Counted from the stretch's first letter, positions 4,654 through 57,186 are shown. The stretch: DNA of 64,000 nt from an uncultured Erythrobacter sp. (GCF_947492365.1 NZ_CANLMB010000001.1:1476874-1540873), one strand, 5' to 3'. Made by a program: numbers and translations. Notes: generated by a model from the letters alone, not told the origin.

Positions 4654-5403
4654 CTATTCGGCAGACGCTTCAAGAGTATCGGCCAGCAGCGCGAGTTGCG
4701 TCGTGCATCCGTTATCGATCAGTGCCTGCGCCAACGCATCGGGGGCCGCGTATTCTTCGTCCATTGTCACAAAGGTGACGTTGACCGAAGCCGCTTCACT
4801 GTCTTCGCCTGCAGGCGCGGTGATGGTGTAGTTTCCGCCATCCGTGATCGGCAGCCCATTGGGATCAAGCGCGCGCACGGCTTCGCTTTCGACAAAGGAC
4901 ACTTCGAGCGAACCTTGCGATGCGGCATCGCGGATCTGGTAGGTTTGCGCTTCGGTTGCCTCGGGACGCCACAGGCGCACGCTGCCAAGATCGTAAAGAC
5001 AGACATTGCCAGCCGCAGCGACATTCACAAACCACAGGTTCGGGCTGCGTGCCGGTGCGCCGGTCGCGCCGCTGCGCACCGCACCCGTGCGGACCCGCCG
5101 AGCGGCCCGTTGGCGCGTAAGGTTAGAGAAGCGCGCGCGGGTGCGGGTTGCCCCTTCGCCTACGCGGAAAGTGCCCGGCCCCTGCATCACGCGGGTGCCG
5201 TCATCGGTCAATACAGTGATCTTGTCGCCTGCGCGCAACGTGATCGAGGCTTCGTCGGCAACCTGACGGCCGACGGGATATTCACCCGCAGACGGTCCGG
5301 AAGATTTCACCACCACACCCGCGCTCGCAGCGCCGGGTACGGCCAAGACAGCGCCAACAAGCGCCAGACCCAAAAAACGGGCTTTCAATTTATCCGAGAA
5401 CAT
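4654..5403 (-). CDS. Secreted hypothetical protein with weak FecR-like N-terminal region
   Basis: Start chosen at the ATG at 5403, with GGGGGAG about 5 nt upstream and 10 nt after the cyclase stop. It has a signal peptide (KARFLGLALVGAVLAVPGAASA). The segment ITLRAGDKITVLTDDGTRVMQGPGTFRV resembles the FecR core. I do not recognise the C-terminal half. Confidence 0.6.
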   Translation of the reverse strand: MFSDKLKARFLGLALVGAVLAVPGAASAGVVVKSSGPSAGEYPVGRQVADEASITLRAGDKITVLTDDGTRVMQGPGTFRVGEGATRTRARFSNLTRQRAARRVRTGAVRSGATGAPARSPNLWFVNVAAAGNVCLYDLGSVRLWRPEATEAQTYQIRDAASQGSLEVSFVESEAVRALDPNGLPITDGGNYTITAPAGEDSEAASVNVTFVTMDEEYAAPDALAQALIDNGCTTQLALLADTLEASAE

Positions 5404-7489
5404 AAGCTCCCCCATCATTCAATTTCCGAATACGTTCGCCATAGTTACGTAGCGCGTCGTCATCCGGATGCATAGCAACCACCTCATCGATTAATTGTAC
5501 TGCTACGTCATGCTTGCTGTCGCTAAGCTGAGCGGCTTCAATTAATTTTTCGCGATGTTCGGGCGGGAAATCAGGCATGGGTTGATAGATATCAACGGGT
5601 TGCGCCCGTCCGCGCAGCACAATCCGGCCCATCGGCACCCACCAATCCGGATTGGATTTTTCAATAAATTCACGGCTAGCCGAAACCGACGACTGAAGGG
5701 GTTTGTTGGCTGCCTCAAGGCGCGCGGCGGTGTTCATGGAATCGCCCAGCGCAGTATACTGGATGCGCGAATCCCCGCCAAAGTTGCCGACAACCGCTTC
5801 GCCAAAGTGCAAACCCACCCGCGTCTTGCCGATCTTGGGCAGGTTCGGGTCCATCGCGGCGACCTCTTCGCGGAAATCCTCGCCAGCCTTCCACATTGCG
5901 TAGCCGGCCTTGGCCGCACGCTCGGCATCGTCAGCGCGCGCGATCGGTGCCCCCCAGAAGGCAACCACAGCGTCGCCGACATATTTGTCGATGACGCCGC
6001 CATGGTCGAGCACAACCTGACTGAGCAGCTCAAGATAGCGGTTGAGCAGCTTTGCGACCATTTCCGGTTCGATCGCATGGCTCATCTTGGTGAAGCCTTC
6101 GAGATCGCTGAACAGCACATAGATCTCGCGCTTTTCTCCGCCGAGCGAGAGCAATTCAGGCTCGTCGATGATCTGTTTGGCGATATCGGCCGGAATATAT
6201 TTGCCCAGCGCCCCTTGCGCGAAACTGCGCTGCGCTGAGCCTGCCGAGCGCGCTGCGGAAGTCACTGCGGTAAAGGCGACAATCCATGCGAGCAGCCAGC
6301 CAACCGCAGGCAGGCCGTAAGTGTCGATATCCTGGAAATGGAGCACGAAGGGAATGCCCACAAACAAAGCGGCGAGACCAAACAGCAGCGGCACCAGCTT
6401 AGGCGCAGGCCATTCCAACAGCGCGGTCAGCGCCGCGGTTGCTACCACAAGAAAGGCCATCGCCCACAGCGCCCAAGTCGGCACTTGCGGCAACACTTTG
6501 CCATCGAGCATTTGTGCAATGATCTCACCGTGCACCGAAAGCCCGGCTGGCTCAAAACCGGTCCATGATGTGAATGAGGTTTCGACACGGTCGTAATCGA
6601 CAATGTCGCCGCCGATCAGGACATACTTGCCCTCGATCTCTTGCGCGACGAACTCGGCAACGGCGGGGTCGAGATCGGTGAAGAGCTCGATGGAAAGCGA
6701 CTGGAACAGAGGCTCTTCGATATCGGCCTGTCCGCCTTCGCCCGCGCCTTCTTCTTCATCAAGTCCCGCGCGCAGTGCCCGGCGGTACTCGATCCCGCCA
6801 AGATAGCCTTCGAAGGCTTCGTAGGGCCCGCCTGCATCCTGCAACATCGCCCGCCCAAGCAATGGCGGCAGGTCTGGTTCGATCGTCGGCCAGATGCGCG
6901 TTGCGCCAAATGTGTTGTCGAGCCGGATGCTGGCAGGTCGCGAATTGGAGCCCTCAAGCGCGGCCATGAACTCCTCGAGGAAGATTTGTTGCTCGTAAAC
7001 AATATCGCTCGAATTGGTGGCAACGTTGGCATAGCCGACCAGCGTCGGCGTCTGCATATTACGCAAAGCTTCGATCAGCAGTTCGTCTTCAGCTTGGGGC
7101 TGGTCGAACAGAATATCGATCCCGATGGCCTTAGCGCCCATCTGGTCGAGATTGGTCAGCGCTTCGGCCAGCGCGTCGCGCGGCAACGGGGATCGCTGTT
7201 CGAGGTTGATGAGCGCCTGATCGTCATAGACGACCAGAATGATCCGGTCGTCCTGTTCGACCAGATCAGCCGCAAGGAAAGCGCGGGTGTCGTAAAGCGC
7301 TCTTTCGGCGGCATTGGTCAACGGAGTGGGTTCTTCGCCGCCGGGCAAGGTCCAGCTGAAACGGGCGAGAAACACTGCCACCAGCAGCAACAGACAGGTC
7401 GCGACCAGTTGCAGCGTACCGGCCTCGCGGACGCTTCGCCACCCGCGCGCAATCAGGCCGCCGCGCCGCTTCTTTCCTTCGTCTGTCAT
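5390..7489 (-). CDS. CHASE2 sensor domain-containing class III adenylate/guanylate cyclase
   Basis: Start at the ATG at 7489, preceded by GGAGGGG. An N-terminal TM segment is followed by a periplasmic CHASE2-like region (ILVVYDDQALINLEQRSPLPRDALAEALTNLDQMGAKAIGIDILFDQP). A cluster of TM helices follows. The cyclase homology domain then carries the metal-binding Asp motifs (VLFSDLEGFT and IDKYVGDAVVAFWGAP) and MNTAARLE. Confidence 0.9.
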   Translation of the reverse strand: MTDEGKKRRGGLIARGWRSVREAGTLQLVATCLLLLVAVFLARFSWTLPGGEEPTPLTNAAERALYDTRAFLAADLVEQDDRIILVVYDDQALINLEQRSPLPRDALAEALTNLDQMGAKAIGIDILFDQPQAEDELLIEALRNMQTPTLVGYANVATNSSDIVYEQQIFLEEFMAALEGSNSRPASIRLDNTFGATRIWPTIEPDLPPLLGRAMLQDAGGPYEAFEGYLGGIEYRRALRAGLDEEEGAGEGGQADIEEPLFQSLSIELFTDLDPAVAEFVAQEIEGKYVLIGGDIVDYDRVETSFTSWTGFEPAGLSVHGEIIAQMLDGKVLPQVPTWALWAMAFLVVATAALTALLEWPAPKLVPLLFGLAALFVGIPFVLHFQDIDTYGLPAVGWLLAWIVAFTAVTSAARSAGSAQRSFAQGALGKYIPADIAKQIIDEPELLSLGGEKREIYVLFSDLEGFTKMSHAIEPEMVAKLLNRYLELLSQVVLDHGGVIDKYVGDAVVAFWGAPIARADDAERAAKAGYAMWKAGEDFREEVAAMDPNLPKIGKTRVGLHFGEAVVGNFGGDSRIQYTALGDSMNTAARLEAANKPLQSSVSASREFIEKSNPDWWVPMGRIVLRGRAQPVDIYQPMPDFPPEHREKLIEAAQLSDSKHDVAVQLIDEVVAMHPDDDALRNYGERIRKLNDGGAYVLG

Positions 7490-7631: not shown

Positions 7632-10600
7632 CTACCGCACGACTTTCGTCGAGCCATCACCAACCACGGCAAAGGCCGACCAGTAGAAGGGATGCGAAGT
7701 CTCCCGATCATCCATCAGAGCGACTTGCGAGAGGCGCAGCGCATCAGCTGTTGCGACATCAGACCCTTCGAACAGCCCGCCGATCAGGCGCGTGGTCGCG
7801 TTATAGTCGTCAGGAACCGGCCAATGGCTGGCAAGCACCGTGCGCCCCCCTGCCCCGACAAAGGCGCGAACCAGACCGTCCAGCGCGAACTCGCCGCGCG
7901 AGACGATGCCTGCCTCCAACGCCGCACCGACAGTCGCGCTGCCTGCCGTATCGCAGGCGGAAAGGATCACGAGATCGGCATCGATCCGCAGCGCGAAGAT
8001 CTCGGCAAAACTAAGCAGTCCATCCGAACCGTCATCGCCGAACGAGGTCAGCAGAGCCGGACGCGGCGGGCATTCGGGCTGAGGCGCGGTAACAAGGCCG
8101 TGCGTAGCGAAGTGAAGGATGCGGTACTCACCCAAATCCTCGCGGGCCTTGATAGCGGTGTCAGTGAAACCGTCCTTTGTGAGGACCGTCGCTCCGCCGC
8201 TTTGCCCTCCGCCAAGCCGTGAGGCGGCGTCGAAAAGCTCGTCCGATTTGATCGGGTTGGACCAGATATTCTCCGACCACAGGCAGTTCTCGCCGCCTGC
8301 AAGCGCCGAACGCGTGCCGGTCGAGCCAACCGGCCCATCTCCAATCGGCGTGTTCTCGCCCAGTCCAAGATAGGCCTTGTCAGCCGCGCTGGGCGGCGCG
8401 GCGCGGACGTCGCGGAAAGCCGTCGGTGCGACCGAGGTGGTGATCTGCGAATTGCGACCGAGCCACTGGACCCCGCGGAAATCGTAGTCATCGCCATCAG
8501 GCCCTTCGAGCCGCGCCTGATATTGCGCGACACTCGCATCGTCGGTCACCAACAGGTTGATTGGCAGCTTGAGCAGCGCACCATCAGGTTCGAAAACGAT
8601 ATGGGTGCGTCCCGGCAGGCGGTCCGCAATGGGTCCGAACAGACGCAGATAGAGATCGCGTGAGGCTTCGAGGTCGAACGGGAAGGTGACGACCTGCGCG
8701 CCCTCTGCAATCGCAATGCTTTCCCTGATGCCGAGAACGATATCCTCTAGCTCGTCAGGGGTCGCATCGACCCTGTAGGCCAGTGCCTCTTCGGGCGTAA
8801 TGTAGATCATGAAGGCTTCGCTATCGAGCTCCACCATCTTCACATAGGCTTCACCCGGACGCAGGATTGACTGCATGCCTGCCAGATCAATCGCCCCGCC
8901 CGATACCGCGCGGAACCGCGGATATTCGGCGAGTTTCTGAAGCACTTCGGCTTGCTGATCCTGCAAGGAAACGAGCCGCGACTGCCGCTCTGTCAGAATG
9001 GCGGCGGCTTGCGGATTGAGCTGCGCGTCACCTTCGATCTGGATGATCTGGGCGCGGGTTCGTTCAATCGAACGTCCCAGATTGACGCTCTGGCGGAACA
9101 ACGCGGATGCTTCATCGCTGCCACCTGACAATTCGCGCGCAAGCACTGCCTGGGTTTGCGCAAGGCCGGGGCGCAGCAGCAGCTGGCTGGCGGAGAATAT
9201 GTCGTCGGCGGCCTCCGTGCTTGCCCCATCGGCGAGCAGCAGGCTGAAATAGCTCGCCATATAGTTGCGCAGTGAAGGAGCTGGTCGCCCTTCGGCCTCG
9301 GCAACGATCTCGCGGTAAAGGCCGATTGCCTCGCCCTCGCGTCCGGTGCGCGCATAGAGCCCTGCAAGCTGTGCCTGCGCGCTATAAAGCGCGGGCGATT
9401 CCGGATAAGCGCTGTCGAGCAATGCGATGCCTTGCTTGTGCAGTGCCTCCGCACGGCCTGCATCGCCTGCCCCTTCGGACAGTTCGGCAAGCTCGCTTAG
9501 CACCTGCGCGCGCAGCCAGAGGATCGAGATGATCCTTCCGCTGCGCACTTCGGACAAAGTCGTATTGGCGCGCGAAAGACTGCTCGCTGCAAGCTCCACG
9601 TCGCCGAGCTGGCGCTGACTGGTCGCGCGCAGATAATCCGCTTGCCCGTCGAGCAATTGCGCACGCTCAATCGGTGTTAGGCTCATCGCAATGACGCCGC
9701 GTGTCGCATTGTCGCTTTCTGCCGCGAGGCGCCGCGCCATGGCAGGGCCGATCTGAAGGCTGCGAAGCGCCGTAGTGTCACCGAAATCGGTGCGGAGCGG
9801 TGCGTTCAGGATATCGATAGCGAGCGAAGGCTGGCCCTGATTGAGCGCATCGATGGCTTCGTAATTGCGCTGCAGCCGTGCGAGGACGGGGCTTGTCCCA
9901 GCTCCCCCGCTCGTCTGTTCGAAACGGCGGCGTGCCTCGGCGAAATTGCCCAGGTTGGACTGGAGCAACCCTTCGTTGAGCCGCGCTTCGATCTCGCTCG
10001 TGCCGGTCAGCGATTCTGCCGATGCGGCGAAGAATTCCGCTGCCTCAGCGAACTCGCCCGCATTGGCCCGGCGATAGGCCTCGTTCAAGGCCTGATCGGC
10101 GGTAATCGATTCGGCCTGTTGCCGTGCAAAGGCGAGGGTATCGGTGGTTTGGGTCAGCGGGATGTCGACCGTGCCCGGCACCAGCCGGTCATTTGCTAGC
10201 GAGGCTACCCCGAGGCTGAGGGCGCTGCGATAGGCTGACAGCCCGCTCGCTGCGAAGGTGCGGTTGCCGCGCTCTCCAACTAGCAATTCGGTGCGGATAA
10301 TACTGCCCTCGCGTGAGCAGATCAGGCGCTTGGCGCCTTCCAGCCCGCTTGGCATGTCAGCACCCGCTTGTTCGGAGCATGAGGCACCTGGGCCAGCAAA
10401 GCGAGCAGCCGCTTCGTCGGCGACACGCCCGCGCACAACCCACATCGTGCCAATAGGCGCGCCGGCATCGCGGCAGAGCAGATTGTATTTGCGGTCAAAC
10501 AGACCCGATCCGCGTTCGGGGGCCTGAATCTGCGCCTCGCACAGCCCGTTCGATCCGATGGGAAATGTGTCACGCAGGCTGACCGGATTTTGCGAAGCCA

Positions 10601-10694
10601 CCTGAGCGGTGTTGGGACTGGCCCAAAATGCCGCCGTTCCAACAGCTGCCAGCGCGCCGAGTGTAAGCAGAGATTTTCTGATTGTCTGGGTCAT
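7632..10694 (-). CDS. Signal-peptide-bearing TPR-repeat protein with C-terminal CHAT (caspase-fold) protease domain
   Basis: Start at the ATG at 10694 (MTQTIRKSLLTLGALAAVGTAAFWASP), 1 nt after the TpsA stop. The N-terminal domain contains four Cys. A long helical/TPR-like middle follows. The C-terminal CHAT motifs are ILHFATHG (His codon 8100-8102), LVILSACDTAG (Cys codon 7953-7955) and HPFYWSAFAVVGDG. Confidence 0.9.
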   Translation of the reverse strand: MTQTIRKSLLTLGALAAVGTAAFWASPNTAQVASQNPVSLRDTFPIGSNGLCEAQIQAPERGSGLFDRKYNLLCRDAGAPIGTMWVVRGRVADEAAARFAGPGASCSEQAGADMPSGLEGAKRLICSREGSIIRTELLVGERGNRTFAASGLSAYRSALSLGVASLANDRLVPGTVDIPLTQTTDTLAFARQQAESITADQALNEAYRRANAGEFAEAAEFFAASAESLTGTSEIEARLNEGLLQSNLGNFAEARRRFEQTSGGAGTSPVLARLQRNYEAIDALNQGQPSLAIDILNAPLRTDFGDTTALRSLQIGPAMARRLAAESDNATRGVIAMSLTPIERAQLLDGQADYLRATSQRQLGDVELAASSLSRANTTLSEVRSGRIISILWLRAQVLSELAELSEGAGDAGRAEALHKQGIALLDSAYPESPALYSAQAQLAGLYARTGREGEAIGLYREIVAEAEGRPAPSLRNYMASYFSLLLADGASTEAADDIFSASQLLLRPGLAQTQAVLARELSGGSDEASALFRQSVNLGRSIERTRAQIIQIEGDAQLNPQAAAILTERQSRLVSLQDQQAEVLQKLAEYPRFRAVSGGAIDLAGMQSILRPGEAYVKMVELDSEAFMIYITPEEALAYRVDATPDELEDIVLGIRESIAIAEGAQVVTFPFDLEASRDLYLRLFGPIADRLPGRTHIVFEPDGALLKLPINLLVTDDASVAQYQARLEGPDGDDYDFRGVQWLGRNSQITTSVAPTAFRDVRAAPPSAADKAYLGLGENTPIGDGPVGSTGTRSALAGGENCLWSENIWSNPIKSDELFDAASRLGGGQSGGATVLTKDGFTDTAIKAREDLGEYRILHFATHGLVTAPQPECPPRPALLTSFGDDGSDGLLSFAEIFALRIDADLVILSACDTAGSATVGAALEAGIVSRGEFALDGLVRAFVGAGGRTVLASHWPVPDDYNATTRLIGGLFEGSDVATADALRLSQVALMDDRETSHPFYWSAFAVVGDGSTKVVR

Positions 10695-10695
10695 C

Positions 10696-13600
10696 TTAGT
10701 TCCCCTCCACGCGGACGCTGCCGGTCGCACCCGGACCATAGAGCGAGCTGTCACCGCCGCTCGAGACCGGATCATCGATCGTGCCTTCTTCCTCATCCTC
10801 TGGCTCCACCATTAAGCCGGGGAAGTCGATGCCGAATTCGGTATCGGCCTCCGCCTCGGTTAGCGGAACCGGAGCAACACTTGTGATCGGGTCTTCGATA
10901 ATGTTCGGATTGTTGATCGGCAGGCTCACCTCAGAATTTTCGGGCTCCGGCGTAACGGGATCAGGGCCACCTCCGCTTCCACCATTATCTGGGCAGACTC
11001 CGGTGTTGATCAGACAATCATTGAATTCCGACGTGCCCGAATAGAAGGTGGAGGTTGAACTTCCGTCATTGTTGAAATTGACCTCGCCGAAGAAATCTTC
11101 GCCGGTGATCAGATTGCCCTGACCGTCAATTCGCGCACCATAGGCGAACACGTCGAGCCCACTTTCCGCATTGGTGGCACTATCAGGTGCAAAGATCGAC
11201 AGACCGCCATCGCCCACCAATATGCCACCTTGCGCAGTTTCGGTGCCGGTATTGCGGACGAGGAAACTAACGCCGGCTTCTACGCTCACACCACTTGCGC
11301 GGACAAAGCCAAGGGGATCATCGCTCCCACTTGCCGCCACACGCAACTGGTCGTCACGGCCTGAGAACAGAGAATCGTCCTGAAGCAAGGCAATCAAGTC
11401 GCTGTCAGCGATCCAGATATTGTCTGACCCCAGGAATATATTGCCTCCCGGATCGCCATTGGGGTTCAAGACGAACAGCCCGCCGGGCGTGACCACTTCA
11501 ATCCTCCCTCCGGCAAGCAGGCTTAGCTGGTCAGTTTCAGCTGCATCGTTCCATTGGACGAGACCGTCGACCCGAATGATGCCGCCACTGCCCGTGGCAT
11601 TGATAGTGACGCTCGAAACGCCATCATCAAGCGAACCGGCAATAACGGTGTCGCGGATGATGATGTCGGGATCGTTCGACCCAGCGCCCGGCAAAGCATC
11701 CTGCGTGAATGTAAAGTCGGTCACATCGATCCGCTGGAGCTCTTCAGCGATCGCGCTGTAGCCTTCGCCGGTCGCGTCACTATCAGGCGTACCTACTCCA
11801 CCAAGAACCGCTGGATCATCGGCGTTGATCGAGACCAGATTTACAATCGGAGCGCCAATCCGCGCGCCGTTTGCAATCACGATATCGTTGGACGTGAGGT
11901 TGAGTACGGCTCCGCCAAATCCGACATGATTGTCGTCATCTCCAAGGATGTTGATTATAGCCTGCGATTGAACGTCAACAATTGCAGTGGGATCCAATTG
12001 ATCGGGCCCGCCAACAATCCTTCCTTGCGAAGTCTCGACAGTGAAATCATCGAGCACATCGATTGTCATGTTGCCGGAAATAAGGATGTCTCCGCCAATT
12101 GCTCGGACGCTAGAGCCATCTGCGCTGCTGCTGGCCGTGCGGTCGCCCAGAGCAAATCCATTCAAATCGTTGACCGCAAGCTGGCCTTGCTGTGCGACTA
12201 CCGAGAATTCACCGCTTACATTCGGTACGCCGGAATCGTCATTGGCTCCTGAGCCGCTAGCACTCAGGTTCAGCTCGTCGATATTGACCTGAGGCGCGCC
12301 GACAACATCCGTGCTGCCGATCAACACATCGGCTGTGCCGCCAGAAGTCAGCCCGTCGATAGAGCTGACTGCGTCGCTGAAGAGCGAGACGGTGAAGATG
12401 TCGACGTTCACCGTATCGCTGAATTCAACAAAGGTGGAACCCGCTTCAGCGTTTCCGCCCGAAACTCCGGTCGCGGTGGTTCCCGATGCCGCATTGGCTG
12501 TCAGCAGCAGCTCGTCGAACGCGAATGTGCCGCCGATACCGCTGAACGATGCCGATCCTGCCAGACTGTCGCCGATGCTCTCGCCGCCATTGCCGCCGGT
12601 TGCATCGGAATGGAGCGTCATCGTTCCGGGTGAAGAATTCGCCGCAAGGATGGTCAGATCCGAGTTAACGAAAGTGGCAAAGACATCGCCGCCTGTGGCC
12701 GTCCCGCCAGTGCCGCCTACGCCATTGCCGCCTTGGGCGGATCCGCGCAAACTATTGACCCCGAACAAGTCTGCAGCCCCTCCGCTAAACCCGAATTGAA
12801 TGCCGCCACTGACACCTTCACCAGCTGTTGTGCTGTCACCCAATGCATCCCCGCCAGTTGCTTCGGAGAAGATGGTCAGCGTTCCATCAACCCCGACGGG
12901 CTGACTGGTGTAAGCGAGCGAGGAAATGGTCGAGTTGCTGAACTGGATATCGGCGGTGCTCGAACTCGCATCGCCGCCGCTTCCAACTCCGTTTCCACCA
13001 AAGACTTGTTCTCCAATCTGGATGAATGCTTCGCCGTTGGCATTGGTCAAAATGTTGATCACAGAATTGGTGACATTCCATTCGATGAAGCCGGATGTGA
13101 CATTGCCTCCATTCCCGTTGATCCCGCCATCGCCGCCGCTCGACGAGGTGGTGAAGAGACTGTTGCCGAACGTCGTCAGCGTGCTGTCGATAATGTCGTA
13201 GAACTCGCCGCCAGCCGTTGCATTGCCGCCATTGCCGGTGCCCGAACCGTCGCCGCCATTGGCGCCCGAACTGCCGCCAATAAACTCTCCTTCTACATCG
13301 CCACCATTGGTCAGGTTCATGAGCCGCTCGCCGCCGATTGCGTCGCCGCCACTGATGTCGAGATTTGAGTTGAGACTGCTGCCGCCATTAGCAAAGCTCG
13401 AGATGATGACCTGACCAAGATCAATCGAGGCATTGTCTGCGGAAATCGTGACAAACCCGCCTTGCGCGGTTCCGCCAACACCCCCGTCAACCGAACTTCC
13501 ACCGCCAAACGCTGATGCCTGAATTCCGTTGCCGATCTGGCTGTTTGGATCATTTGCTGGATCAGGCGGAAGCGTGATGTCGCCGCCATCCGAAACGTTG

Positions 13601-16600
13601 ATCTCAATATCGCCACCCAACGCGGAGCCACCAATACCAGACCCACCAGTCGTATCACCGCCAAAGCCATTGGACGAGATGATCGCGCCTCGATTGAGCG
13701 CATCGCTAAAGGCTTGCGGAGTATTGAGCTGTATCCTGACCTGGCTGCCTTGATCGCGAGAGCGAACAAAGGTGGAGCCGCCAAAACCGTCTCCGCCCGC
13801 AGCATCACCGACCCCGCCTTGACCGGAGGATGTCACTTGCGCTGAGCCAAGCGTAATCGTGCTTCCGTTATGTGCTTCGATCGTGGAGAGACCGCCCTGT
13901 CCGAACCCGCCTGAGCCCCCGATGCCGCTCGCTCCGCCAACACCGTTTGCGATCACTGCAGCGTTTCCGCTTACCGTCGCATCGCCGGAGATATTCGATC
14001 TAAACGCAGACAGGTCGCTGCGCCCTCCAAAACCGTCGCCGCCATCTCCTCCAGAAGATGATCCGCCAAAACCGCTGGTATCGAGAATGACGTCTCCATC
14101 GATGTCGATCGTACCGTCGGTCACGTCGATAAACGCCGCGCCGCCAATTGCCCTGCCGCCCGCGCTGCCGTCAGCGTTACCGCCAACGCCCTGCGAGATG
14201 AGTTGCGCGCCAGTAGCCTGGATCGTGCCGCCATTGACCGTATCCATCACGGCCTTGAAGAAGGTACTATTGCGGTTGCGAGCATCGTTGGTCGCCTCGC
14301 CGCCATTCTCACCCGAACCGCCAATTGCGTTCGCTGTCGCGCGGATATTGCCTCCGCTCAAACTTCCGGTGTCGACAAAAATTGCCGCAAGGCCCGAAGT
14401 GCCAGTGCCGCCGTCTCCGCGCAGGGTGCCGGTTCCGCCGCCAAGTCCGCCATTGCCGCCTGTGCCATCTGCCGTCAGCAATATGTCGCCGAATGTTGCA
14501 ACACCTGCACCGACCGAACCATCGGTGCCGATCAAGGTAAGGCCGACTGTCGAGGAACCACCTGTTCCGTCACCGCCATCGCCGCCATCTTGACCAGCGC
14601 CTCCTGCGCCGCCCACACCGCCAGCTCCCTGCGTAAGGATCAAAGCGAACCCTCCAACCGAAAGACTGCCGTTGTCACCGCCCGCAATTATCGACGCGCC
14701 ATTAAACTCGCCGTCGTTAAAGGCGTTGACATCAAGCTCGTCGCCGCCAATGCCGTCACCGCCGCGGCCAGCCAGGATATTCGCACCATCGCCGTCGCCG
14801 CCTGAGCCACCTCGGCCATTGGCGCGGGTTTGTGCATCACCGCCTATCGCGATCATACCGGTTTCGGTTTGCGTGCCTGCGGCCACAATGGTTGCCCGGC
14901 CACCGTGACCTGTGCCGCCATCGCCGCCAATGCCGATTGAGTCTCCGCCGAAGCCGCCTGCATTGGCACGTGCACGGCCGGTGATATCAATCTGACCAGC
15001 GCCGACGCGAATACCAGCGAACCCGCCAAAGGCATCGCCTCCGCCGGTTCCATCCCCGCCGGTTCCCTCGGCGTCGATCAGCAGATCACGGCCTACGCCG
15101 AGGCTAGAATTGCCTTGCACATCGATGGTTGATCCGCCGCCGATTGCCACACCGCCAGCGCCGGTGCCGTCATTATCACCGGCAGTGGCATTGGTATCCG
15201 CGAACAAATCTCGGCCAACACTCATCGTTCCGGTGTTCTCGATCATGACAAGCGCGCTCCCGCCTGTCGCGGAGGCGGCATCAGCGCCAGAATTGCTGTC
15301 ACCCGCTGTTCCGCGAGCGAGCAGACTTACATCGACTACAGCATCGAAAGTGCCCGCCGATCCTTCGATGGAGATTTCGGCGATGCCGCCATCGCCTGCT
15401 CCGCCGACACCAACTGCACCCAAGCTTAGTAAGGTGCCGCCTATGCCGTCTGCACGCAGCAACACATTGCCGCCTGCTGAGAAAGTTCCGTCAAGTACGC
15501 GCGCGGACGCAATTCCGCCTAAGCCATCGCCGCCGCCTTGCCCGTCACCGCCGAAGCCATCCGCCTCGACTTCAACTTCATCGCCCACAATGAGAGTTGA
15601 ATTGGCCTGAATATCAATCGTTGAAGTCCCGCCGTTTGCGAGCCCGCCAGCTCCGGATCCGCCATTGCCGCCGCCAATCGCAAGTGTGCTGATGAACAGA
15701 TCGGTGCCGATGGTCATTGATCCGCCGTTTTCGATCAACAGGTGCGCCTCACCTGCCGTGCCGACGGCGCCATCGCTGGCGCTGGAACTGAATCCAGCGA
15801 ACACGCCTGCACTCAGAGGAACATTGCCTCCAACGTCGACCGAGGCGTTGGGACCACTGATCACAATTTCTGCGAGACCACCGGTTGCAGCTCCGCCGAC
15901 ATCAATTGCGCCGTTTCCGCCAAAAGCGCCGGCATCGAGAGATAGATTGTTGGTAACTGTGACCTGCGCGTCGGTTACCGTCAGCATGGCTTGTCCGCCT
16001 ATGCCTTCGCCGCCCAGGTCCCCGTCTCCGCCGTTTCCTGCAGCAGAGCCCAACACCCCGCCAATAGCCATCAGCCCCTGATCTAGGGCCAACAACGAAA
16101 CCAGACCGCCAGAGCCGTTGCCCCCAACATGGCCATCGCCGCCTGCGCCTTCTGAACTGAGATCGACATTGCCCGCGGTCACGTCGCCTTCGATCGCGCT
16201 GAAGAACGATCCACCGCCCTGGCCTATGCCGCCATTACCGGCGATTGCATCAGTTCCGTTGCCTGCGCCGCCATTACCGCCAACGCCATCGCTGAATATA
16301 TCAATGTCACCAAAATCAGCGGTGCCGTTGCCGTCGCCAATTGTGGTCGTGCCACTTAACGTTGCATGGCCAACTTGGACAAAGCCGCCAGATCCATCCC
16401 CGCCATCGCCGCCGTCCTGATCAGTGCCGCCTGCGCCGCCCTGTCCGCCGACACCATTCGAACTGGCAAAGACGGTACCGCCCACCGAATAGGTCGCATT
16501 GTCTCTATCAGAGAGGAGAAAAGTTCCGCTGGAGAAGCCGCTTGCAGCCTGGTTTGCCACATTCTGGCCCCCAATAGCATCTCCGCCCCGGCCTGCTTCG

Positions 16601-18891
16601 ATCGCGCTACCGTCGCCTGCACCGCCAGTGCCCCCGAAACCGTCGGAATATGCTCCAACATCTCCGCCGACCGTAATGCTGGCGCTGACATTGGCTGTCC
16701 CGTTAGCTTGTAGCGAGGAGTTGCCGCCTTCACCCAAGCCGCCATCGCCGCCAAATCCAATGCTAGCATTGCCGCCAAAGCCGGTAGAATCGATGTCTGC
16801 CAGTCCGGTGATGTCGAGAGTTCCGGAAACGACCTGAATACCTGCGATTCCGCCAAAGCCGCTACCGCCGCCAATTCCGTTACCGCCACGACCGGTAGCC
16901 GAACTGAAGAAATCGCCGCCGACCAGAAGGTTGCCGCCATTGGGAACAAAGCCGCGCGCGGCACCGCCCAAGCCGTCTCCGCCACGACCTCCGAAATTAT
17001 TGCCGCCAATGGCGCGGGCTTCGAGGATCAGGGCGTCCTCGATATCGATAGTCTCGCTGCCACCGATAAAGACTTCTGCACTACCTGAATCCGCAATTGC
17101 ACCATTGCCATTTGGATTGTTGGACGCGCCGGCAAATGCGAGCGAGTACAGCTCCGCAACGCCGTTAATGTCGATCGTTCCTCCGTCTAGAGCCTGGAGG
17201 ATCGCGGCCCCACCAAATACATTGACCCCGCTGGATATGCCCAAAGTGTCCATCGAAGCAGAACTAGCGCCAGCCGACAAAAGGATGCTGCCATTGGTCG
17301 TCAAAAGACCATTATTGTTTGCAAAAACCTGCGCTGTGCCACCCGTCACATCGCCGCCGCTTAGCAGATCGCCCGAACGTTCTTGCGCTGCATCTGCAGT
17401 GACAAAGGAATCGCCGTTGATCGTGAGTGTACCGCCCCCTGCTGCAATCGTTGCAATGCCGCCCGTCGCGGTGCCGGAAGCAAGGACGCCCAGGTCAGCA
17501 CCGGCAAATGCATCGGCAGTAACAACGACTGTGCCATTGATCGTCATCGTTCCGTCAAAGGCGTCGATAAAGGCATCCCCGCCCTGCGCATTGATCGCGT
17601 TGGGGTCGTTCAAAGACACGCCGGTCTCGCCAAAGTCGCGCGCCGAAACCAGCACGTCTCCGTTGATGGTGAAGTCGAAGCCGCCAGCCGAGGTTAGCTC
17701 GGCAAAATTGCGACCGACCATCAGCAGATTGCCGTCTATCGAGCTGTCGCCGATAAAGCTGCTGACCTGAACCTCTTCATTCGCGATAGCGAGCACACTG
17801 CTGGTCGATGTAAAGCCTTCGAGGAAAATGCTTCCGGGCGTGTTGGTGAGCTGGGTGTTGCCGTCGAATACTGCGTTGACACCATCACTAATCGACCCGC
17901 CATCAACGTCGCGCCCGCTTACTGCGTAATTGGCCGAAAGGATGATCTCGCCATTCACGATCCCAGCGCTCGCCGCCGGATCAAAGCCGAGATTACCACG
18001 GAAAATCATCGCGATAGGATCGTTCTGTGCTGCTGCAACCGCATAGATCATGTGGTTGTCGCCTGCGCCCGTGCTCGACGGACCCCCAATGTCCCCATCG
18101 AGGATTACTGGCGTTGTAGCGGACGTGCCGACCGGAATCTGGATGTCGAACAGACCGTTGCTGACAGTCACATTGACTTGCTCACCCGCGACATAGGCGT
18201 GACTGCCATTGATATCGGCCGTCCCGAACATCTGCACTTCGAGGCTGATGACCGCGAAATAGGAATTTTCGGCCGTGGCGGTGAACTGCGCGCCGGGCTG
18301 GATGATAATGTTCTGGCCTGCGGGGTCGATCGCGGTAAGCTGGAGCTGGCCTCCATTGAGCGCAAAATCATCAAAGCTGGCGAGATCCGGCTCGAGCGTT
18401 GTCAGAATCAAATTCCCGACATCGAACACCGCATTGTCGCCGACGAAAATCCCTGATGGAGAATAAAATGCGACCGTGCCGCCGCGACTAACCGCGCCGG
18501 TTCCAGGATCGACAAGCTGCGAAATCAGCGTCCCGTCGAAAACCGTCACACTGTCATTTGCAGAAGGAAGGACGATGTTCAGGACCGCAAAATCGGCGTT
18601 GTTGACGCCATTCTGGAACGTCACCGCATTGAATTGGGGCAAGAAATCGAGCGCATTGCCCGCGCCGTCCTCATCCGGAGTCCATTGGATCACCGCAGTG
18701 TCGGTCTGCACCACAATGGTCTCTGTGCCCGTGCCGGTGAATACCCGATTGGCTGAGCCTGACGTGACACTCTCGGTCGCCTGAATGGCCTGCGCGCTCG
18801 CCCGTTCGGGAGCCATTGCCAGTCCCGTTGCCATGGCGGCAGCGCCGCAACCAAGCAGCAGTTTGGCGCGGTTCCTGTTCAACTGAGCCAT
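10696..18891 (-). CDS. Giant (2,731 aa) glycine-rich two-partner-secretion exoprotein (TpsA; filamentous-haemagglutinin N-terminal domain protein)
   Basis: It has an extended signal peptide and a TPS domain: VLNIVLPSANDSVTVFDGTLIS...VAFYSPSGIFVGDNAVFDVGNLILTT, a variant of the NPNGI-type motif. About 2,000 aa of GGxGGxG-type beta-helix-like repeats follow. The C-terminus is non-repetitive, acidic and Pro-rich. Confidence 0.9.
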   Translation of the reverse strand: MAQLNRNRAKLLLGCGAAAMATGLAMAPERASAQAIQATESVTSGSANRVFTGTGTETIVVQTDTAVIQWTPDEDGAGNALDFLPQFNAVTFQNGVNNADFAVLNIVLPSANDSVTVFDGTLISQLVDPGTGAVSRGGTVAFYSPSGIFVGDNAVFDVGNLILTTLEPDLASFDDFALNGGQLQLTAIDPAGQNIIIQPGAQFTATAENSYFAVISLEVQMFGTADINGSHAYVAGEQVNVTVSNGLFDIQIPVGTSATTPVILDGDIGGPSSTGAGDNHMIYAVAAAQNDPIAMIFRGNLGFDPAASAGIVNGEIILSANYAVSGRDVDGGSISDGVNAVFDGNTQLTNTPGSIFLEGFTSTSSVLAIANEEVQVSSFIGDSSIDGNLLMVGRNFAELTSAGGFDFTINGDVLVSARDFGETGVSLNDPNAINAQGGDAFIDAFDGTMTINGTVVVTADAFAGADLGVLASGTATGGIATIAAGGGTLTINGDSFVTADAAQERSGDLLSGGDVTGGTAQVFANNNGLLTTNGSILLSAGASSASMDTLGISSGVNVFGGAAILQALDGGTIDINGVAELYSLAFAGASNNPNGNGAIADSGSAEVFIGGSETIDIEDALILEARAIGGNNFGGRGGDGLGGAARGFVPNGGNLLVGGDFFSSATGRGGNGIGGGSGFGGIAGIQVVSGTLDITGLADIDSTGFGGNASIGFGGDGGLGEGGNSSLQANGTANVSASITVGGDVGAYSDGFGGTGGAGDGSAIEAGRGGDAIGGQNVANQAASGFSSGTFLLSDRDNATYSVGGTVFASSNGVGGQGGAGGTDQDGGDGGDGSGGFVQVGHATLSGTTTIGDGNGTADFGDIDIFSDGVGGNGGAGNGTDAIAGNGGIGQGGGSFFSAIEGDVTAGNVDLSSEGAGGDGHVGGNGSGGLVSLLALDQGLMAIGGVLGSAAGNGGDGDLGGEGIGGQAMLTVTDAQVTVTNNLSLDAGAFGGNGAIDVGGAATGGLAEIVISGPNASVDVGGNVPLSAGVFAGFSSSASDGAVGTAGEAHLLIENGGSMTIGTDLFISTLAIGGGNGGSGAGGLANGGTSTIDIQANSTLIVGDEVEVEADGFGGDGQGGGDGLGGIASARVLDGTFSAGGNVLLRADGIGGTLLSLGAVGVGGAGDGGIAEISIEGSAGTFDAVVDVSLLARGTAGDSNSGADAASATGGSALVMIENTGTMSVGRDLFADTNATAGDNDGTGAGGVAIGGGSTIDVQGNSSLGVGRDLLIDAEGTGGDGTGGGDAFGGFAGIRVGAGQIDITGRARANAGGFGGDSIGIGGDGGTGHGGRATIVAAGTQTETGMIAIGGDAQTRANGRGGSGGDGDGANILAGRGGDGIGGDELDVNAFNDGEFNGASIIAGGDNGSLSVGGFALILTQGAGGVGGAGGAGQDGGDGGDGTGGSSTVGLTLIGTDGSVGAGVATFGDILLTADGTGGNGGLGGGTGTLRGDGGTGTSGLAAIFVDTGSLSGGNIRATANAIGGSGENGGEATNDARNRNSTFFKAVMDTVNGGTIQATGAQLISQGVGGNADGSAGGRAIGGAAFIDVTDGTIDIDGDVILDTSGFGGSSSGGDGGDGFGGRSDLSAFRSNISGDATVSGNAAVIANGVGGASGIGGSGGFGQGGLSTIEAHNGSTITLGSAQVTSSGQGGVGDAAGGDGFGGSTFVRSRDQGSQVRIQLNTPQAFSDALNRGAIISSNGFGGDTTGGSGIGGSALGGDIEINVSDGGDITLPPDPANDPNSQIGNGIQASAFGGGSSVDGGVGGTAQGGFVTISADNASIDLGQVIISSFANGGSSLNSNLDISGGDAIGGERLMNLTNGGDVEGEFIGGSSGANGGDGSGTGNGGNATAGGEFYDIIDSTLTTFGNSLFTTSSSGGDGGINGNGGNVTSGFIEWNVTNSVINILTNANGEAFIQIGEQVFGGNGVGSGGDASSSTADIQFSNSTISSLAYTSQPVGVDGTLTIFSEATGGDALGDSTTAGEGVSGGIQFGFSGGAADLFGVNSLRGSAQGGNGVGGTGGTATGGDVFATFVNSDLTILAANSSPGTMTLHSDATGGNGGESIGDSLAGSASFSGIGGTFAFDELLLTANAASGTTATGVSGGNAEAGSTFVEFSDTVNVDIFTVSLFSDAVSSIDGLTSGGTADVLIGSTDVVGAPQVNIDELNLSASGSGANDDSGVPNVSGEFSVVAQQGQLAVNDLNGFALGDRTASSSADGSSVRAIGGDILISGNMTIDVLDDFTVETSQGRIVGGPDQLDPTAIVDVQSQAIINILGDDDNHVGFGGAVLNLTSNDIVIANGARIGAPIVNLVSINADDPAVLGGVGTPDSDATGEGYSAIAEELQRIDVTDFTFTQDALPGAGSNDPDIIIRDTVIAGSLDDGVSSVTINATGSGGIIRVDGLVQWNDAAETDQLSLLAGGRIEVVTPGGLFVLNPNGDPGGNIFLGSDNIWIADSDLIALLQDDSLFSGRDDQLRVAASGSDDPLGFVRASGVSVEAGVSFLVRNTGTETAQGGILVGDGGLSIFAPDSATNAESGLDVFAYGARIDGQGNLITGEDFFGEVNFNNDGSSTSTFYSGTSEFNDCLINTGVCPDNGGSGGGPDPVTPEPENSEVSLPINNPNIIEDPITSVAPVPLTEAEADTEFGIDFPGLMVEPEDEEEGTIDDPVSSGGDSSLYGPGATGSVRVEGN
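14287..15255 (-). repeat. Internal protein-level repeat block 2 of the TpsA gene (aa ~1213-1535)
   Basis: Second copy of the 609-aa-offset duplication. It is immediately preceded by a further ~164-aa sub-repeat (AHLLIENGGSMTIG at aa 1049 versus ALVMIENTGTMSVG at aa 1213). DNA identity is only patchy, for example a shared ccgccatcgccgcc. Confidence 0.75.
16114..17082 (-). repeat. Internal protein-level repeat block 1 of the TpsA gene (aa ~604-926)
   Basis: Paralogous to aa ~1213-1535 at a constant offset of 609 aa. Anchor pairs: GSGFGGIAGIQVVSGTLDITG / GDAFGGFAGIRVGAGQIDITG, AGRGGDAIGG / AGRGGDGIGG, and GGTDQDGGDGGDGSGG / GGAGQDGGDGGDGTGG. Confidence 0.75.
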
Positions 18892-18892
18892 C

Positions 18893-22529: not shown

Positions 22530-22557
22530 GGACATCGCACAGGAGGCAGGCACGCGG

Positions 22558-30781: not shown

Positions 30782-30783
30782 GG

Positions 30784-31407: not shown

Positions 31408-31441
31408 GCGTCCCTCTGGATAGGTTTGTTTCCTGTATCGC

Positions 31442-33320: not shown

Positions 33321-33322
33321 TC

Positions 33323-57157: not shown

Positions 57158-57186
57158 TCAGTAAATGAGTTTCACAGCTTTACAAT

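Follow-up and report, generated by a model that had tools for sequence, protein, structure and literature searches.

The chat gene occupies positions 7632..10694 (minus strand, stop codon included) of a 64,000-nt stretch of DNA from an uncultured Erythrobacter, referred to here as the window, and encodes a 1020-aa exported protein made up of an N-terminal domain, a TPR-like region and a CHAT domain. It is part of a minus-strand operon with the order tpsB, tpsA, chat, a gene for a CHASE2-cyclase and a gene for an exported 254-aa protein (p254). A sequence-only reading of this DNA had placed the chat ATG one nucleotide past the TpsA stop, and the ORF coordinates bear this out: the tpsA TAA (10698-10696) and the chat ATG (10694-10692) are separated by a lone G at 10695. 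The junction (10695..10708, minus strand) also contains a Shine-Dalgarno-like string, GGAGGGG (10708-10702), upstream of the chat ATG. The same start is used in a public record of the protein (P0001; 100% identical, 1020 aa). In the called genes of relatives, tpsA and chat overlap by 1 to 4 nt, compared with a spacing of +1 nt in the window. A longer ORF opening at ATG 10796 in this region was rejected as an Arg-rich, out-of-frame overlap.

The two genes upstream of chat form a TPS pair. tpsB (18893..20839, minus strand) encodes an outer-membrane transporter matching Pfam ShlB (3.5e-15; 56.7 bits, cut-off 22.7) and POTRA_2 (7e-08; 32.7 bits, cut-off 24), and its true start is probably internal, for example at TTG 20719. 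Its stop codon (18895-18893) precedes the tpsA ATG (18891) with a 1-nt spacer. As judged from translation and composition, tpsA (10696..18891, minus strand) encodes a Gly-rich exoprotein of 2731 aa, with Gly reaching 33% between residues 600 and 2000. TpsA gave no match at E <= 0.01 in Pfam, including TPS/Haemagg_act, or in NCBIfam. When compared with the PDB, a profile of 14 TpsA N-terminal sequences (profile A2) matched three solved TPS domains, those of HMW1-PP (2odl, 8.3e-7), HxuA (4i84, 9.7e-7) and EtpA (8cpk, 5.9e-6), and essentially nothing else; the TpsA of a distant relative carries Pfam PF05860. On these sequence grounds, the N-terminus of TpsA (~residues 35-330; 17902..18789, minus strand) is very probably a divergent TPS secretion domain.

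The chat product begins with a signal peptide (residues 1-31; 10602..10694, minus strand), in which an n-region with R6 and K7 precedes a hydrophobic core of 18-20 aa (maximum 12-aa Kyte-Doolittle mean 1.88) and cleavage probably occurs after ..NTA. Although the sequence itself drifts, 79 of 80 loci keep the signal-peptide property, as judged only from inspection and hydropathy; many of them have AxA ends, and 3 of 20 distant relatives carry a lipobox in its place. The signal peptide noticed in the sequence-only reading therefore holds up in silico. It is followed by a β-rich domain (10185..10601, minus strand), recognized from conservation and an AF2 model (pLDDT 89, pTM 0.83) that had no significant structural neighbour in the PDB. 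Four Cys residues of this domain, C52 in CEAQ, C74 in LLCRD, C106 in ASCSEQ and C126 in LICSRE, had been singled out earlier and proved to be invariant in 101 sequences. Together with C804 and C875 in the CHAT domain, they make up three invariant Cys pairs, which suit an oxidising compartment and so favour export. Signal peptides, lipoboxes, invariant Cys residues and a DdvA-like fold all lend in silico support to the extracytoplasmic location that had been proposed, and we predict that the chat product is a Sec-exported, soluble periplasmic protein with a disulfide-bonded β domain, a TPR array and a CHAT domain.

The central part of the protein (~residues 171-600; 8895..10184, minus strand) is a TPR-like helical repeat region. 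Helices run throughout residues 153-595 of the AF2 model, a family profile matches kinesin-light-chain TPRs at ~1e-5, and TPR matches are among the Foldseek results for the model, in agreement with the helical array described from the sequence; Pfam TPR_12 and TPR_19 scored under threshold on this protein. The remaining part (~residues 604-1020; 7635..8885, minus strand) is a CHAT caspase-fold domain, identified by Pfam, by Foldseek and by the invariant pair C804/C875. The Pfam CHAT match (PF12770; 8.6e-47, 160.4 bits, cut-off 24) covers residues 676-1013 and spans profile positions 2-289 of 289. The full-length AF2 model is of moderate confidence (pLDDT 69), with low-confidence active-site loops; its best Foldseek matches were Csx29 (7y8t_B, 6.3e-9) and separases (~1e-8), with a probability of 1.00 to Csx29, separases and DdvA. 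That TM-scores stay low (0.2-0.37) is due to the several domains of the model and its no more than moderate confidence. The catalytic dyad consists of His865 in FATHG (codon 8100..8102, minus strand) and Cys914 in LSACDTAG (codon 7953..7955, minus strand), both conserved in 101 of 101 sequences. They belong to a set of eight residues, along with the six Cys residues of the three pairs, that is invariant among 81 sequences of 44-100% identity and kept in 20 of 20 further relatives at 29-34% identity. The intact His/Cys dyad in a CHAT domain that had been read from the sequence is thus confirmed, and we infer that the window protein is a CHAT cysteine protease of the clan CD caspase fold with predicted peptidase activity.

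A CHAT domain could also be a non-catalytic scaffold, or be directed at something unrelated, for example TpsB, proteins of the cell wall or those of a competitor, in which case its adjacency to TPS genes would reflect mere co-regulation or shared export needs. We find this very doubtful. Protease activity has yet to be demonstrated for the periplasmic CHAT region of DdvA, whose active site seems incomplete (PMC11506125), but a pseudo-enzyme would not be expected to keep His865 and Cys914 invariant in 101 sequences with identities as low as 29%. As regards an unrelated target, the T6SS-linked contexts of some relatives hold PAAR, DUF4123, M23 and CPBP genes and suggest antibacterial functions; however, a Pfam scan of the CHAT protein recognized no TPS domain and no T6SS-delivery domain such as PAAR, and CHAT strictly co-occurs with a motif in the TpsA tail, described below.

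Across genomes, TPS genes are the constant partner of chat, and the CHASE2-cyclase is not, since it is present in one clade only. A survey of CHAT genes directly following TPS genes found a TpsA tail directly upstream of CHAT, with tight spacing or overlap, for 78 of the 80 related genome loci; among the 53 loci with a flank long enough to include tpsB, 51 have TpsB, TpsA and CHAT in this order. All eight relatives of about 30-36% identity that were examined keep the trio, and six of them adjoin type VI secretion genes; CHAT directly follows a giant TPS protein in more than 100 related loci overall. On Sphingobium pMSHV, the same parts (TPS genes, chat, CHASE2-cyclase and p254) are kept in a changed order. 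In two loci, L064 and L080, CHAT comes immediately after TpsB, and no TpsA is encoded within 10 kb.

The tail of TpsA comprises a Cys loop, a linker rich in Pro and acidic residues, a PV[TA]SGGDS[ST]L[YW] motif and an acidic terminus. The loop, C2626-x6-C2633 (10993..11016, minus strand), is a candidate 'cysteine hook' and contains the only Cys residues of mature TpsA; among 64 tails of related TpsA proteins, 51 have a C-x5-8-C loop, which also occurs in the T6SS-linked clade. The motif, DDPVSSGGDSSLY in the window (10738..10776, minus strand), is a candidate site of recognition or cleavage by CHAT, and takes the form [ILV][DE][DE]PV[TA]SGGDS[ST]L[YW] in 77 of 79 TpsA tails, 17-46 aa before the C-terminus. 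In a reverse test on metagenome contigs, the tail motif was followed directly by a CHAT gene in 35 of 35 informative occurrences. These co-occurrences, together with the synteny, support in silico the dedication to a TPS system suggested by the sequence-only reading. That a short motif at the extreme C-terminus is so sharply conserved, within a tail otherwise variable and of low complexity, speaks for specific recognition of the TpsA tail. In the T6SS-linked clade the motif is degenerate, which gives no support to a fixed site of cleavage ('after Asp', for example).

A periplasmic protease acting on the tail of its cognate TpsA is, from this pattern of conservation, the most likely reading of the chat product. 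Some observations weigh against it: the Cys loop is absent from 13 of the 64 tails, loci L064 and L080 pair TpsB with CHAT without a nearby TpsA, and conserved synteny would also fit an action of CHAT on TpsB or on a third protein. The two TpsA-less loci would also suit a protein that works at the transporter, as in quality control. The TPR array would then hold the unfolded, Gly-rich TpsA (2731 aa) in the periplasm en route to TpsB, and the CHAT domain would destroy stalled or misfolded TpsA, as DegP does with FhaB, with no specific site and no regulation. TPR arrays commonly bind extended peptides, the genes are tightly and, it seems, stoichiometrically coupled, very large TpsA proteins are a constant partner, and cyanobacterial POTRA-TPR-CHAT fusions put CHAT beside Omp85-type substrate-binding domains. 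Nevertheless, we consider a chaperone or quality-control role improbable, given that the conserved extreme C-terminal motif argues for specific recognition and that clan CD proteases are typically site-specific, as is generally known and noted in PMC11506125.

Downstream of chat, a gene at 5390..7489 (minus strand) encodes a CHASE2 sensor joined to a class III nucleotide cyclase (Pfam CHASE2 1.8e-24, Guanylate_cyc 1.4e-15), probably starting at ATG 7489, 142 nt past the chat stop. This CHASE2-cyclase lies downstream of chat in 28 Erythrobacter-clade loci and adjoins chat in Sphingobium. The p254 gene (4654..5418, minus strand) overlaps the end of the cyclase gene and comes after it in 26 loci, which are all those with enough downstream sequence; the Sphingobium p254 shows 38% identity (1e-41). 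Comparison of p254 with Pfam and the PDB gave no family match and no detectable relation to DUF928. A second CHASE2 receptor, with CHASE2 (5.8e-43) and SpoIIE/PP2C phosphatase (3.7e-39) domains, is encoded at 22504..24582 on the plus strand, divergent from the operon, and its membership in the system is uncertain. The CHASE2-cyclase, p254 and the TpsA tail motif had all been missed in the sequence-only reading, and all three bear on the signal generation that it listed among the options.

The gene neighbourhoods raise a further possibility, which we judge unlikely but worth weighing: that the system serves envelope signalling, with CHAT as a signal generator and not a maturation enzyme. TpsA would sense contact, damage or pulling, and CHAT would cut the TpsA tail or p254 to create a periplasmic ligand or state, to be read by CHASE2 receptors with cyclase and PP2C outputs or, for other clades, by regulators of type VI secretion. 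In 26-28 loci the CHASE2-cyclase and p254 genes are co-transcribed, and both remain with chat where the order has changed; the second CHASE2-PP2C gene lies 1.7 kb upstream, and distant relatives are found inside T6SS clusters, one of them also with a Ser/Thr kinase and a PP2C phosphatase. For DdvA, too, the periplasmic CHAT region has been proposed to serve in signal-induced proteolysis (PMC11506125). In cyanobacteria, CHAT genes adjoin CHASE2 and DUF928 genes, and one weak CHAT match, in Tolypothrix, is fused to CHASE2, but it falls just under the Pfam threshold (23.6 vs 24 bits). On the other hand, a CHASE2 gene is missing from the 10-kb surroundings in over half of the close family (L028-L080), gene order does not reveal the direction of information flow, and no ligand is known for a CHASE2 domain.

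The proposed tail cleavage of TpsA by a periplasmic cysteine protease has a parallel in Pseudomonas aeruginosa, where LapG cleaves the TpsA protein CdrA at its periplasm-exposed C-terminal end and releases this adhesin, under the control of LapD and c-di-GMP (PMC4694147). According to a passage of PMC7616799 that cites Cooley 2016, CdrA is held in the CdrB pore by a C-terminal cysteine hook. In the window TpsA, too, a Cys loop near the C-terminus precedes a conserved tail, and a nucleotide-signalling membrane protein is encoded alongside. Despite these similarities, LapG is transglutaminase-like (BTLCP, DUF920) and the window protease is a CHAT protein, with no BTLCP domain in the operon proteins or the other window ORFs scanned. 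The last 130 residues of TpsA contain no LapG-type AA/TAAG motif, and in place of the di-alanine the window tail has the conserved PV[TA]SGGDS. Furthermore, the membrane partner is a nucleotide-making CHASE2 and class III cyclase protein, in contrast to LapD, a c-di-GMP receptor of the inner membrane by which the protease is sequestered, and the window ORFs scanned include no LapD-like GGDEF/EAL/HAMP protein. Finally, LapG is not known to be encoded within the cdrAB operon, whereas chat is part of the tps operon in every genome.

Another parallel is FhaB, the giant TpsA of Bordetella. Its prodomain has a Pro-rich region and an extreme C-terminus, and the FhaB proteases CtpA, DegP and SphB1 are serine proteases. 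The window tail also has a Pro-rich stretch before a conserved extreme C-terminus, but it measures ~100 aa compared with ~1200 aa for the FhaB prodomain, and no maturation protease is known to be encoded in the fhaB-fhaC operon. Removal of the C-terminal region of FhaB during secretion is described in a passage of PMC4542190.

Regarding the enzyme itself, DdvA of Myxococcus xanthus is a transmembrane anti-sigma factor with a periplasmic TPR-CHAT region (PDB 8rot, 8rw5) that has a His-Cys dyad and is the only extracytoplasmic TPR-CHAT to have been structurally studied; DdvA is membrane-anchored and controls CBASS/CRISPR genes, its cytoplasmic anti-sigma domain being bound to an ECF sigma factor (PMC11506125). 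Foldseek ranked DdvA among the best matches to the window model (E 1.4e-7 and 1e-6). Hallmarks of DdvA-type anti-sigma factors are a zinc-binding anti-sigma domain in the cytoplasm, a single transmembrane helix and a gene for a cognate ECF sigma factor. The window protein differs from it in its signal peptide, Cys-rich β domain and TPS linkage, and Pfam detected no anti-sigma or sigma-70 family domain in the operon proteins. Csx29, of the type III-E Craspase, and separases have the TPR-plus-CHAT architecture and fold in common with the window protein, but they are cytoplasmic or nuclear, lack an export signal, conserved Cys pairs and a secretion-system partner, and become active through RNA-bound Cas7-11 or when securin is lost. 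The window ORFs scanned include no cas genes, and the CHAT protein had no PADLOC match. A part in processing the secreted proteins of bacteria has been proposed for the clan CD, caspase-like 'releasing peptidases' of polymorphic toxins (Zhang et al. 2012, PMC3482391). These peptidases act in cis, within the toxin itself, and are listed for the T2SS, T6SS, T7SS, PVC and TcdB/TcaC routes, HINT being the sole entry for T5SS (PMC3482391), whereas the window peptidase, a separate exported protein, would act in trans. As for cyanobacteria, CHAT genes in database records have CHASE2 receptors and a small exported protein as neighbours. In at least 23 cyanobacterial protein clusters, CHAT is fused to Omp85/ShlB-type POTRA domains, which again puts CHAT in the periplasm with parts of the Omp85 superfamily. 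However, the cyanobacterial CHAT is no more than about 25-30% identical to the window protein, and two plasmid loci inspected contain no TpsA or TpsB barrel.

Taken together, we lean towards a model, drawn from sequence and gene context, in which a periplasmic CHAT protease is a dedicated partner of TpsB and TpsA that cuts the TpsA tail and, in this clade, is coupled to CHASE2 signalling; we hold it to be somewhat probable. TpsB would export TpsA N-terminus first, and the C-terminal tail would remain in the periplasm. There, the TPR array may hold the tail while the CHAT domain cuts it, so that surface-held TpsA would be matured or released, much as LapG acts on CdrA in CdrB. In the Erythrobacter/Sphingobium clade, this event may be coupled to the co-transcribed CHASE2-cyclase and p254, and the coupling could run in either direction: tail cleavage may signal to the cyclase, or the cyclase pathway may govern the protease.

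The sequence-only reading had regarded proteolysis of a TPS substrate by an extracytoplasmic CHAT protein as a new role. The pairing of CHAT with a TPS system was not found in the literature searched, and this part of the claim stands; periplasmic proteolysis of a TpsA, by LapG on CdrA, and a periplasmic TPR-CHAT, in DdvA, both precede it. These precedents place the novelty in the CHAT-TPS pairing, and not in periplasmic TpsA proteolysis as such. The pairing of an exported CHAT protein with TpsA points to an undescribed form of cutting or sensing of such surface proteins.

The CHAT gene of the window is the third member of a five-gene run on the minus strand, which comprises tpsB (18893-20839), encoding a TpsB-type transporter with Pfam ShlB and POTRA_2 domains; tpsA (10696-18891), whose translation is a Gly-rich protein of 2731 aa; the chat open reading frame itself (7632-10694); a gene assigned by Pfam to a CHASE2 sensor fused to a class III nucleotide cyclase (5390-7489); and p254 (4654-5418), which overlaps the end of the CHASE2-cyclase gene and encodes a 254-aa exported protein that belongs to no recognised family. 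The predicted CHAT protein is 100% identical to the public record 'CHAT domain-containing protein [uncultured Erythrobacter sp.]', and the window sequence bears out the earlier placement of its ATG one nucleotide past the upstream stop codon: a single G separates the TAA of tpsA (10698-10696) from the ATG at 10694, and GGAGGGG lies seven bases ahead of that ATG. The tpsB-tpsA junction (18889-18895) has an equal 1-nt gap, between a stop codon at 18895-18893 and the tpsA ATG at 18891. An alternative chat start, the ATG at 10796, was rejected, as it would overlap the end of tpsA out of frame, and the public record shares the start at 10694. Spacing figures here and below come from the window sequence and from gene calls or annotation of the relatives, automatic start choice having over-extended many ORFs; a promoter and terminator scan of the operon returned counts equal to the shuffled expectation and was uninformative. 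Divergent from the operon, 1.7 kb upstream of tpsB, lies another CHASE2 gene (22504-24582, plus strand), whose product has SpoIIE/PP2C phosphatase output, such that two CHASE2 receptors flank the TPS-CHAT operon; a metallo-beta-lactamase-fold gene in between (21564-22529, plus strand) is kept in two related loci, L010 and L011. Elsewhere in the window, a minus-strand cluster of FGE-sulfatase (formylglycine-generating enzyme), DsbA-like and sulfatase genes (29858-34987) and a TPR-sulfotransferase with a TonB-dependent receptor (55100-59844) are unrelated to the finding.

Pfam and NCBIfam scans found no domain in TpsA. To identify it, the N-termini of 14 homologues were aligned and the profile was searched against PDB sequences, where nothing scored below E = 0.1 except three TPS domains of solved structure: the HMW1 pro-piece (2odl, 8.3e-7), HxuA (4i84, 9.7e-7) and EtpA (8cpk, 5.9e-6). 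Because of these matches, and because the gene directly follows tpsB with a 1-nt spacer, the gene upstream of chat very probably encodes a TpsA with a divergent TPS domain, in agreement with what had been proposed for it; the TpsA of one distant relative carries Pfam PF05860. The body of the protein (residues about 600-2000) consists of 21-33% glycine in GGxGGxG-type repeats that match no Pfam family. In one subclade (L020-L026), the C-terminal part instead has YGNANPALTF...GLVNGDQLTGAL repeats and the Cys loop described below is absent.

By profile, catalytic dyad and fold, the window protein belongs to the CHAT family. Its Pfam CHAT match reaches 160 bits (E 8.6e-47), and the His/Cys dyad that the sequence-only reading had pointed out is present as His865 (codon 8100-8102) and Cys914 (codon 7953-7955), together with the four N-terminal Cys it had noted (C52, C74, C106 and C126). 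A full-length AlphaFold2 model (pLDDT 69, pTM 0.61) predicts helices over residues 153-595, between the N-domain and CHAT, which agrees with the TPR-like array anticipated there; Pfam TPR models fall below threshold on this region, and the family profile matches kinesin-light-chain TPRs at about 1e-5. When the full model was compared with the PDB by Foldseek, it matched Csx29 (6.3e-9), separases (about 1e-8) and DdvA (1.4e-7 and 1e-6). Modelled alone, the N-domain (residues 32-180, 10155-10601 on the minus strand) is predicted as a beta-sheet with two helices (pLDDT 89, pTM 0.83); it has no significant PDB neighbour, the best being PsbP, DcrB and TM1622 at E >= 6.5e-3 and TM <= 0.47, and its fold is left unassigned. 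A defence-system check with PADLOC gave no match for CHAT, TpsB, p254 or the CHASE2-PP2C protein.

The case that the protein is exported was built on conservation across 80 genome loci of the close family and 20 relatives at 29-34% identity. Over the 80 loci, the N-terminal 25-45 residues vary freely in sequence and always keep Lys/Arg, a hydrophobic core and small residues (often AxA), ahead of a conserved mature start, ..SLRD.FP.G..G.C.AQ; in 79 of them the hydropathy maximum over 12 residues reaches 1.65 or more. Three of the 20 relatives replace the plain signal peptide with a lipoprotein box. Six non-catalytic Cys are invariant in 101/101 sequences: the four N-domain Cys and the pair C804/C875 on either side of the loop with the catalytic His. 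They would fit three disulfides formed in an oxidising compartment. Together, these features argue for the signal peptide and extracytoplasmic location proposed at the outset. A periplasmic TPR-CHAT protein, DdvA, has been described before (PMC11506125).

The pairing of this protein with two-partner secretion genes is consistent across the family. The ORF ending at the CHAT start is a TpsA tail in 78 of the 80 loci, and the order TpsB, TpsA, CHAT holds in 51 of the 53 loci with enough upstream sequence to show TpsB. The two exceptions, L064 (1372-6206) and L080 (8044-13009), are metagenome-assembled genomes in which TpsB lies directly upstream of CHAT and the 10 kb to either side contain neither a TpsA-like ORF nor the tail motif. 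A library-wide protein search yielded 754 representatives of 50% identity clusters at E <= 1e-30, many of them 1030-1080 aa long and aligned over nearly their full length at 30-34% identity. The contexts of seven such representatives and of one further relative on a plasmid were inspected, and in all eight a giant ORF either overlaps the CHAT start by 1 to 4 nt or stops 8 nt short of it, with an ShlB gene upstream wherever the contig extends far enough. On the Sphingobium herbicidovorans plasmid pMSHV the five parts are reordered as CHAT, CHASE2-cyclase, p254, ShlB, TpsA; the linkage has thus survived rearrangement, which argues well for a common function. No TPS linkage is seen for the CHAT-TPR genes of Rhizobium and Pseudosulfitobacter plasmids, at 27-33% identity and without a match to the N-domain, so the pairing is specific to this family and not a property of CHAT domains generally. 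The TPS-CHAT module is widespread in Sphingomonadales and Caulobacterales, with cultured carriers of the operon such as Erythrobacter sp. NAP1, Erythrobacter ramosus JCM 10282 and S. herbicidovorans MH, and its constancy strengthens the proposal that the protein is probably dedicated to a TPS substrate.

The C-terminus of TpsA provides a candidate for what the protease recognizes. The only Cys residues of mature TpsA, C2626 and C2633, make up a C-x6-C loop, and this loop is followed by a Pro/acid-rich linker, FGIDFPGL, DDPVSSGGDSSLY and 13 further residues. Across loci the linker between loop and motif is extremely variable and often poly-Pro, and the motif itself, [ILV][DE][DE]PV[TA]SGGDS[ST]L[YW], is found in 77 of 79 tails at 17-46 residues from the end, with a close variant in a 78th; of 64 tails, 51 carry the Cys loop. 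The loop is kept as INGCxxGSxxxGC in relatives at about 30-36% identity, together with a degenerate motif (PVTGAGNEDLW, GSGNEEIW, VGSNNEAL). A caspase-style cut after the invariant Asp of the motif was considered and not adopted, the aligned position being Asn in the T6SS-linked clade. In a reverse test, metagenome contigs were scanned with a degenerate DNA pattern for [DE][DE]PV[TA][ST]GGD[ST], which matched 57 stretches, 20 of them unrelated chance matches lacking CHAT and 37 with TpsA-tail context. The CHAT gene directly follows the tail in 35 of these 37 contigs, which are homologous operons and do not represent an independent origin. Of the other two, one stops 70 nt past the stop codon, and the other has a second TpsA and then the contig end; no TpsA tail of this type lacking a CHAT gene was found in the scanned contigs. 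This last contig (L114, 1642 nt) carries tandem TpsA paralogues of one family, the first ending with the tail motif and the second represented by its start alone; the contig breaks off before the CHAT position.

These observations suggest a model in which the TPR array of the exported protein would bind the periplasm-retained TpsA tail and the CHAT domain would cut it, the cut controlling TpsA maturation or release. We propose binding and cutting because the anatomy closely parallels that of CdrA/CdrB of P. aeruginosa, where a C-terminal cysteine hook anchors the TpsA adhesin CdrA in the pore of its TpsB until the periplasmic cysteine protease LapG cuts the tail and sets it free (PMC4694147, PMC7616799). 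Within the reach of sequence analysis, the interpretation is supported. Several differences set the window system apart from its nearest counterparts. LapG has a different protease fold, the TpsA tail has no di-alanine site, and no LapD was found among the window ORFs scanned; unlike a DdvA-type anti-sigma factor, the window protein has no anti-sigma domain and no sigma partner in its operon; and unlike a Craspase component, it has no cas genes among the ORFs scanned and is predicted to be exported. DdvA is the only studied periplasmic TPR-CHAT, its activity is unproven, and no signal or substrate is known for it (PMC11506125). Caspase-like releasing peptidases were listed by Zhang et al. 2012 in toxins that leave the cell by several secretion routes, with HINT alone given for T5SS and the caspase-like peptidases acting in cis (PMC3482391). 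Full-text searches, covering few subscription journals, found no paper linking CHAT with TPS, hemagglutinin, CHASE2 or DUF928; in the literature searched, CHAT with a signal peptide, the periplasm or type VI secretion returned only unrelated papers, DUF928 only an unrelated mention, and the Omp85/TpsB survey PMC4104836 does not mention CHAT. An earlier description of the pairing may exist in the subscription literature. The claim of a new role for CHAT therefore stands in part: the pairing with TPS is absent from the literature searched, but the logic has precedents, as in the action of LapG on CdrA. The system would best be described as periplasmic proteolytic control of TpsA by an operon-encoded CHAT protease.

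The wider contexts of the module raise the question of whether tail cleavage could also carry a signal. CHASE2-cyclase follows chat in all 28 Erythrobacter-clade loci that extend far enough, and p254 follows CHASE2-cyclase in all 26 with enough flank; pMSHV keeps both beside chat, its p254 being 38% identical to that of the window. Both are absent from the other close relatives (L028-L080), where the downstream genes checked in two loci are housekeeping genes. The p254 protein, in which two Cys are invariant, matches no Pfam or PDB family and occupies the position that DUF928 has beside CHASE2 in cyanobacteria; its identity with DUF928 was rejected at sequence level, as it has no Pfam family or PDB relative and no member of its alignment matches DUF928. 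The cyclase domain (5390-7489, minus strand) matches PADLOC models of the Pycsar cyclase PycC at up to 1e-33, with no Pycsar effector nearby, and we read this as generic class III cyclase similarity. CHAT genes of cyanobacterial plasmids have CHASE2 and DUF928 genes as neighbours. A CHASE2 protein on a Tolypothrix plasmid (L086, 1750-4209), with an N-terminal CHAT match just below threshold (23.6 vs 24 bits), may be a CHAT-CHASE2 fusion, and adjoins three further CHAT genes and a caspase-family gene. At least 23 cyanobacterial protein clusters (P0286-P0308) join POTRA, ShlB-type POTRA_2, TPR and CHAT in one chain of 1270-1900 aa; in the POTRA part they share about 50% identity with cyanobacterial proteins of the BamA/TamA family, and one such fusion on a Calothrix plasmid (L085, 6218-10465) adjoins DUF928 and CHASE2 genes.

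Type VI secretion genes lie beside six of the eight distant relatives at about 30-36% identity, whose hosts include Caulobacteraceae, Sphingopyxis and Sphingomonas. Five T6SS-linked relatives sit among TssA/B/C/K/L/M, Hcp, PAAR, DUF4123 or M23 genes, and L092 among TssA/B/C, Hcp and TssE/F/G; CPBP protease genes adjoin three. L093 has PAAR and CPBP genes only, on a short contig, and L094 has none. In L082, L087 and L089-L093, ShlB, TpsA and CHAT lie inside or beside T6SS genes, often with M23 peptidase and CPBP/Rce1-like protease genes, and the L082 cluster also encodes a Ser/Thr kinase and a PP2C phosphatase. No T6SS genes were found among 20 further ORFs scanned in the window, and no account of a TPS-CHAT module accessory to T6SS emerged from the literature searched. 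From these contexts, the TPS pair emerges as the constant partner and envelope signalling or attack systems as the variable ones, which keeps alive the reading of tail cleavage as a signal rather than mere maturation; we rate it lower than maturation or release because in most of the close family no transducer gene adjoins the module. In its fullest form, which we regard as speculative and improbable, this reading would make TpsB, TpsA and CHAT an extracytoplasmic signalling device that works by caspase-like proteolysis and is coupled to lineage-specific transducers. The giant surface TpsA, tethered by its C-terminal tail, would act as a mechanical or contact sensor, and the periplasmic TPR-CHAT would cut at or near PV[TA]SGGDS only upon disturbance of the tether. 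Readout of the product would fall to CHASE2-cyclase and p254, possibly with CHASE2-PP2C, in the window clade, and to type VI secretion clusters in Caulobacteraceae, Sphingopyxis and Sphingomonas. We know of no ligand for CHASE2 receptors; such a device, if true, would supply their first ligand class and a new accessory input to T6SS.

The known CHAT proteases separase and Craspase are cytoplasmic, and two-partner secretion substrates are major adhesins and toxins. To our knowledge, TpsA holding, maturation and release have been worked out for few proteins only, FhaB with serine proteases and CdrA with LapG, and a dedicated operon-encoded clan CD protease, if true, would be a third, non-homologous solution for TpsA processing. 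Since the protease gene always adjoins that of its presumed substrate, genetic study should be easy, and with a candidate substrate and a candidate recognition motif in hand, periplasmic CHAT activity becomes directly testable. The TPS-CHAT module is thus sharply defined, with a specific and testable candidate substrate motif, and its recurrent links to CHASE2 and T6SS suggest that it may feed envelope information into signalling pathways.
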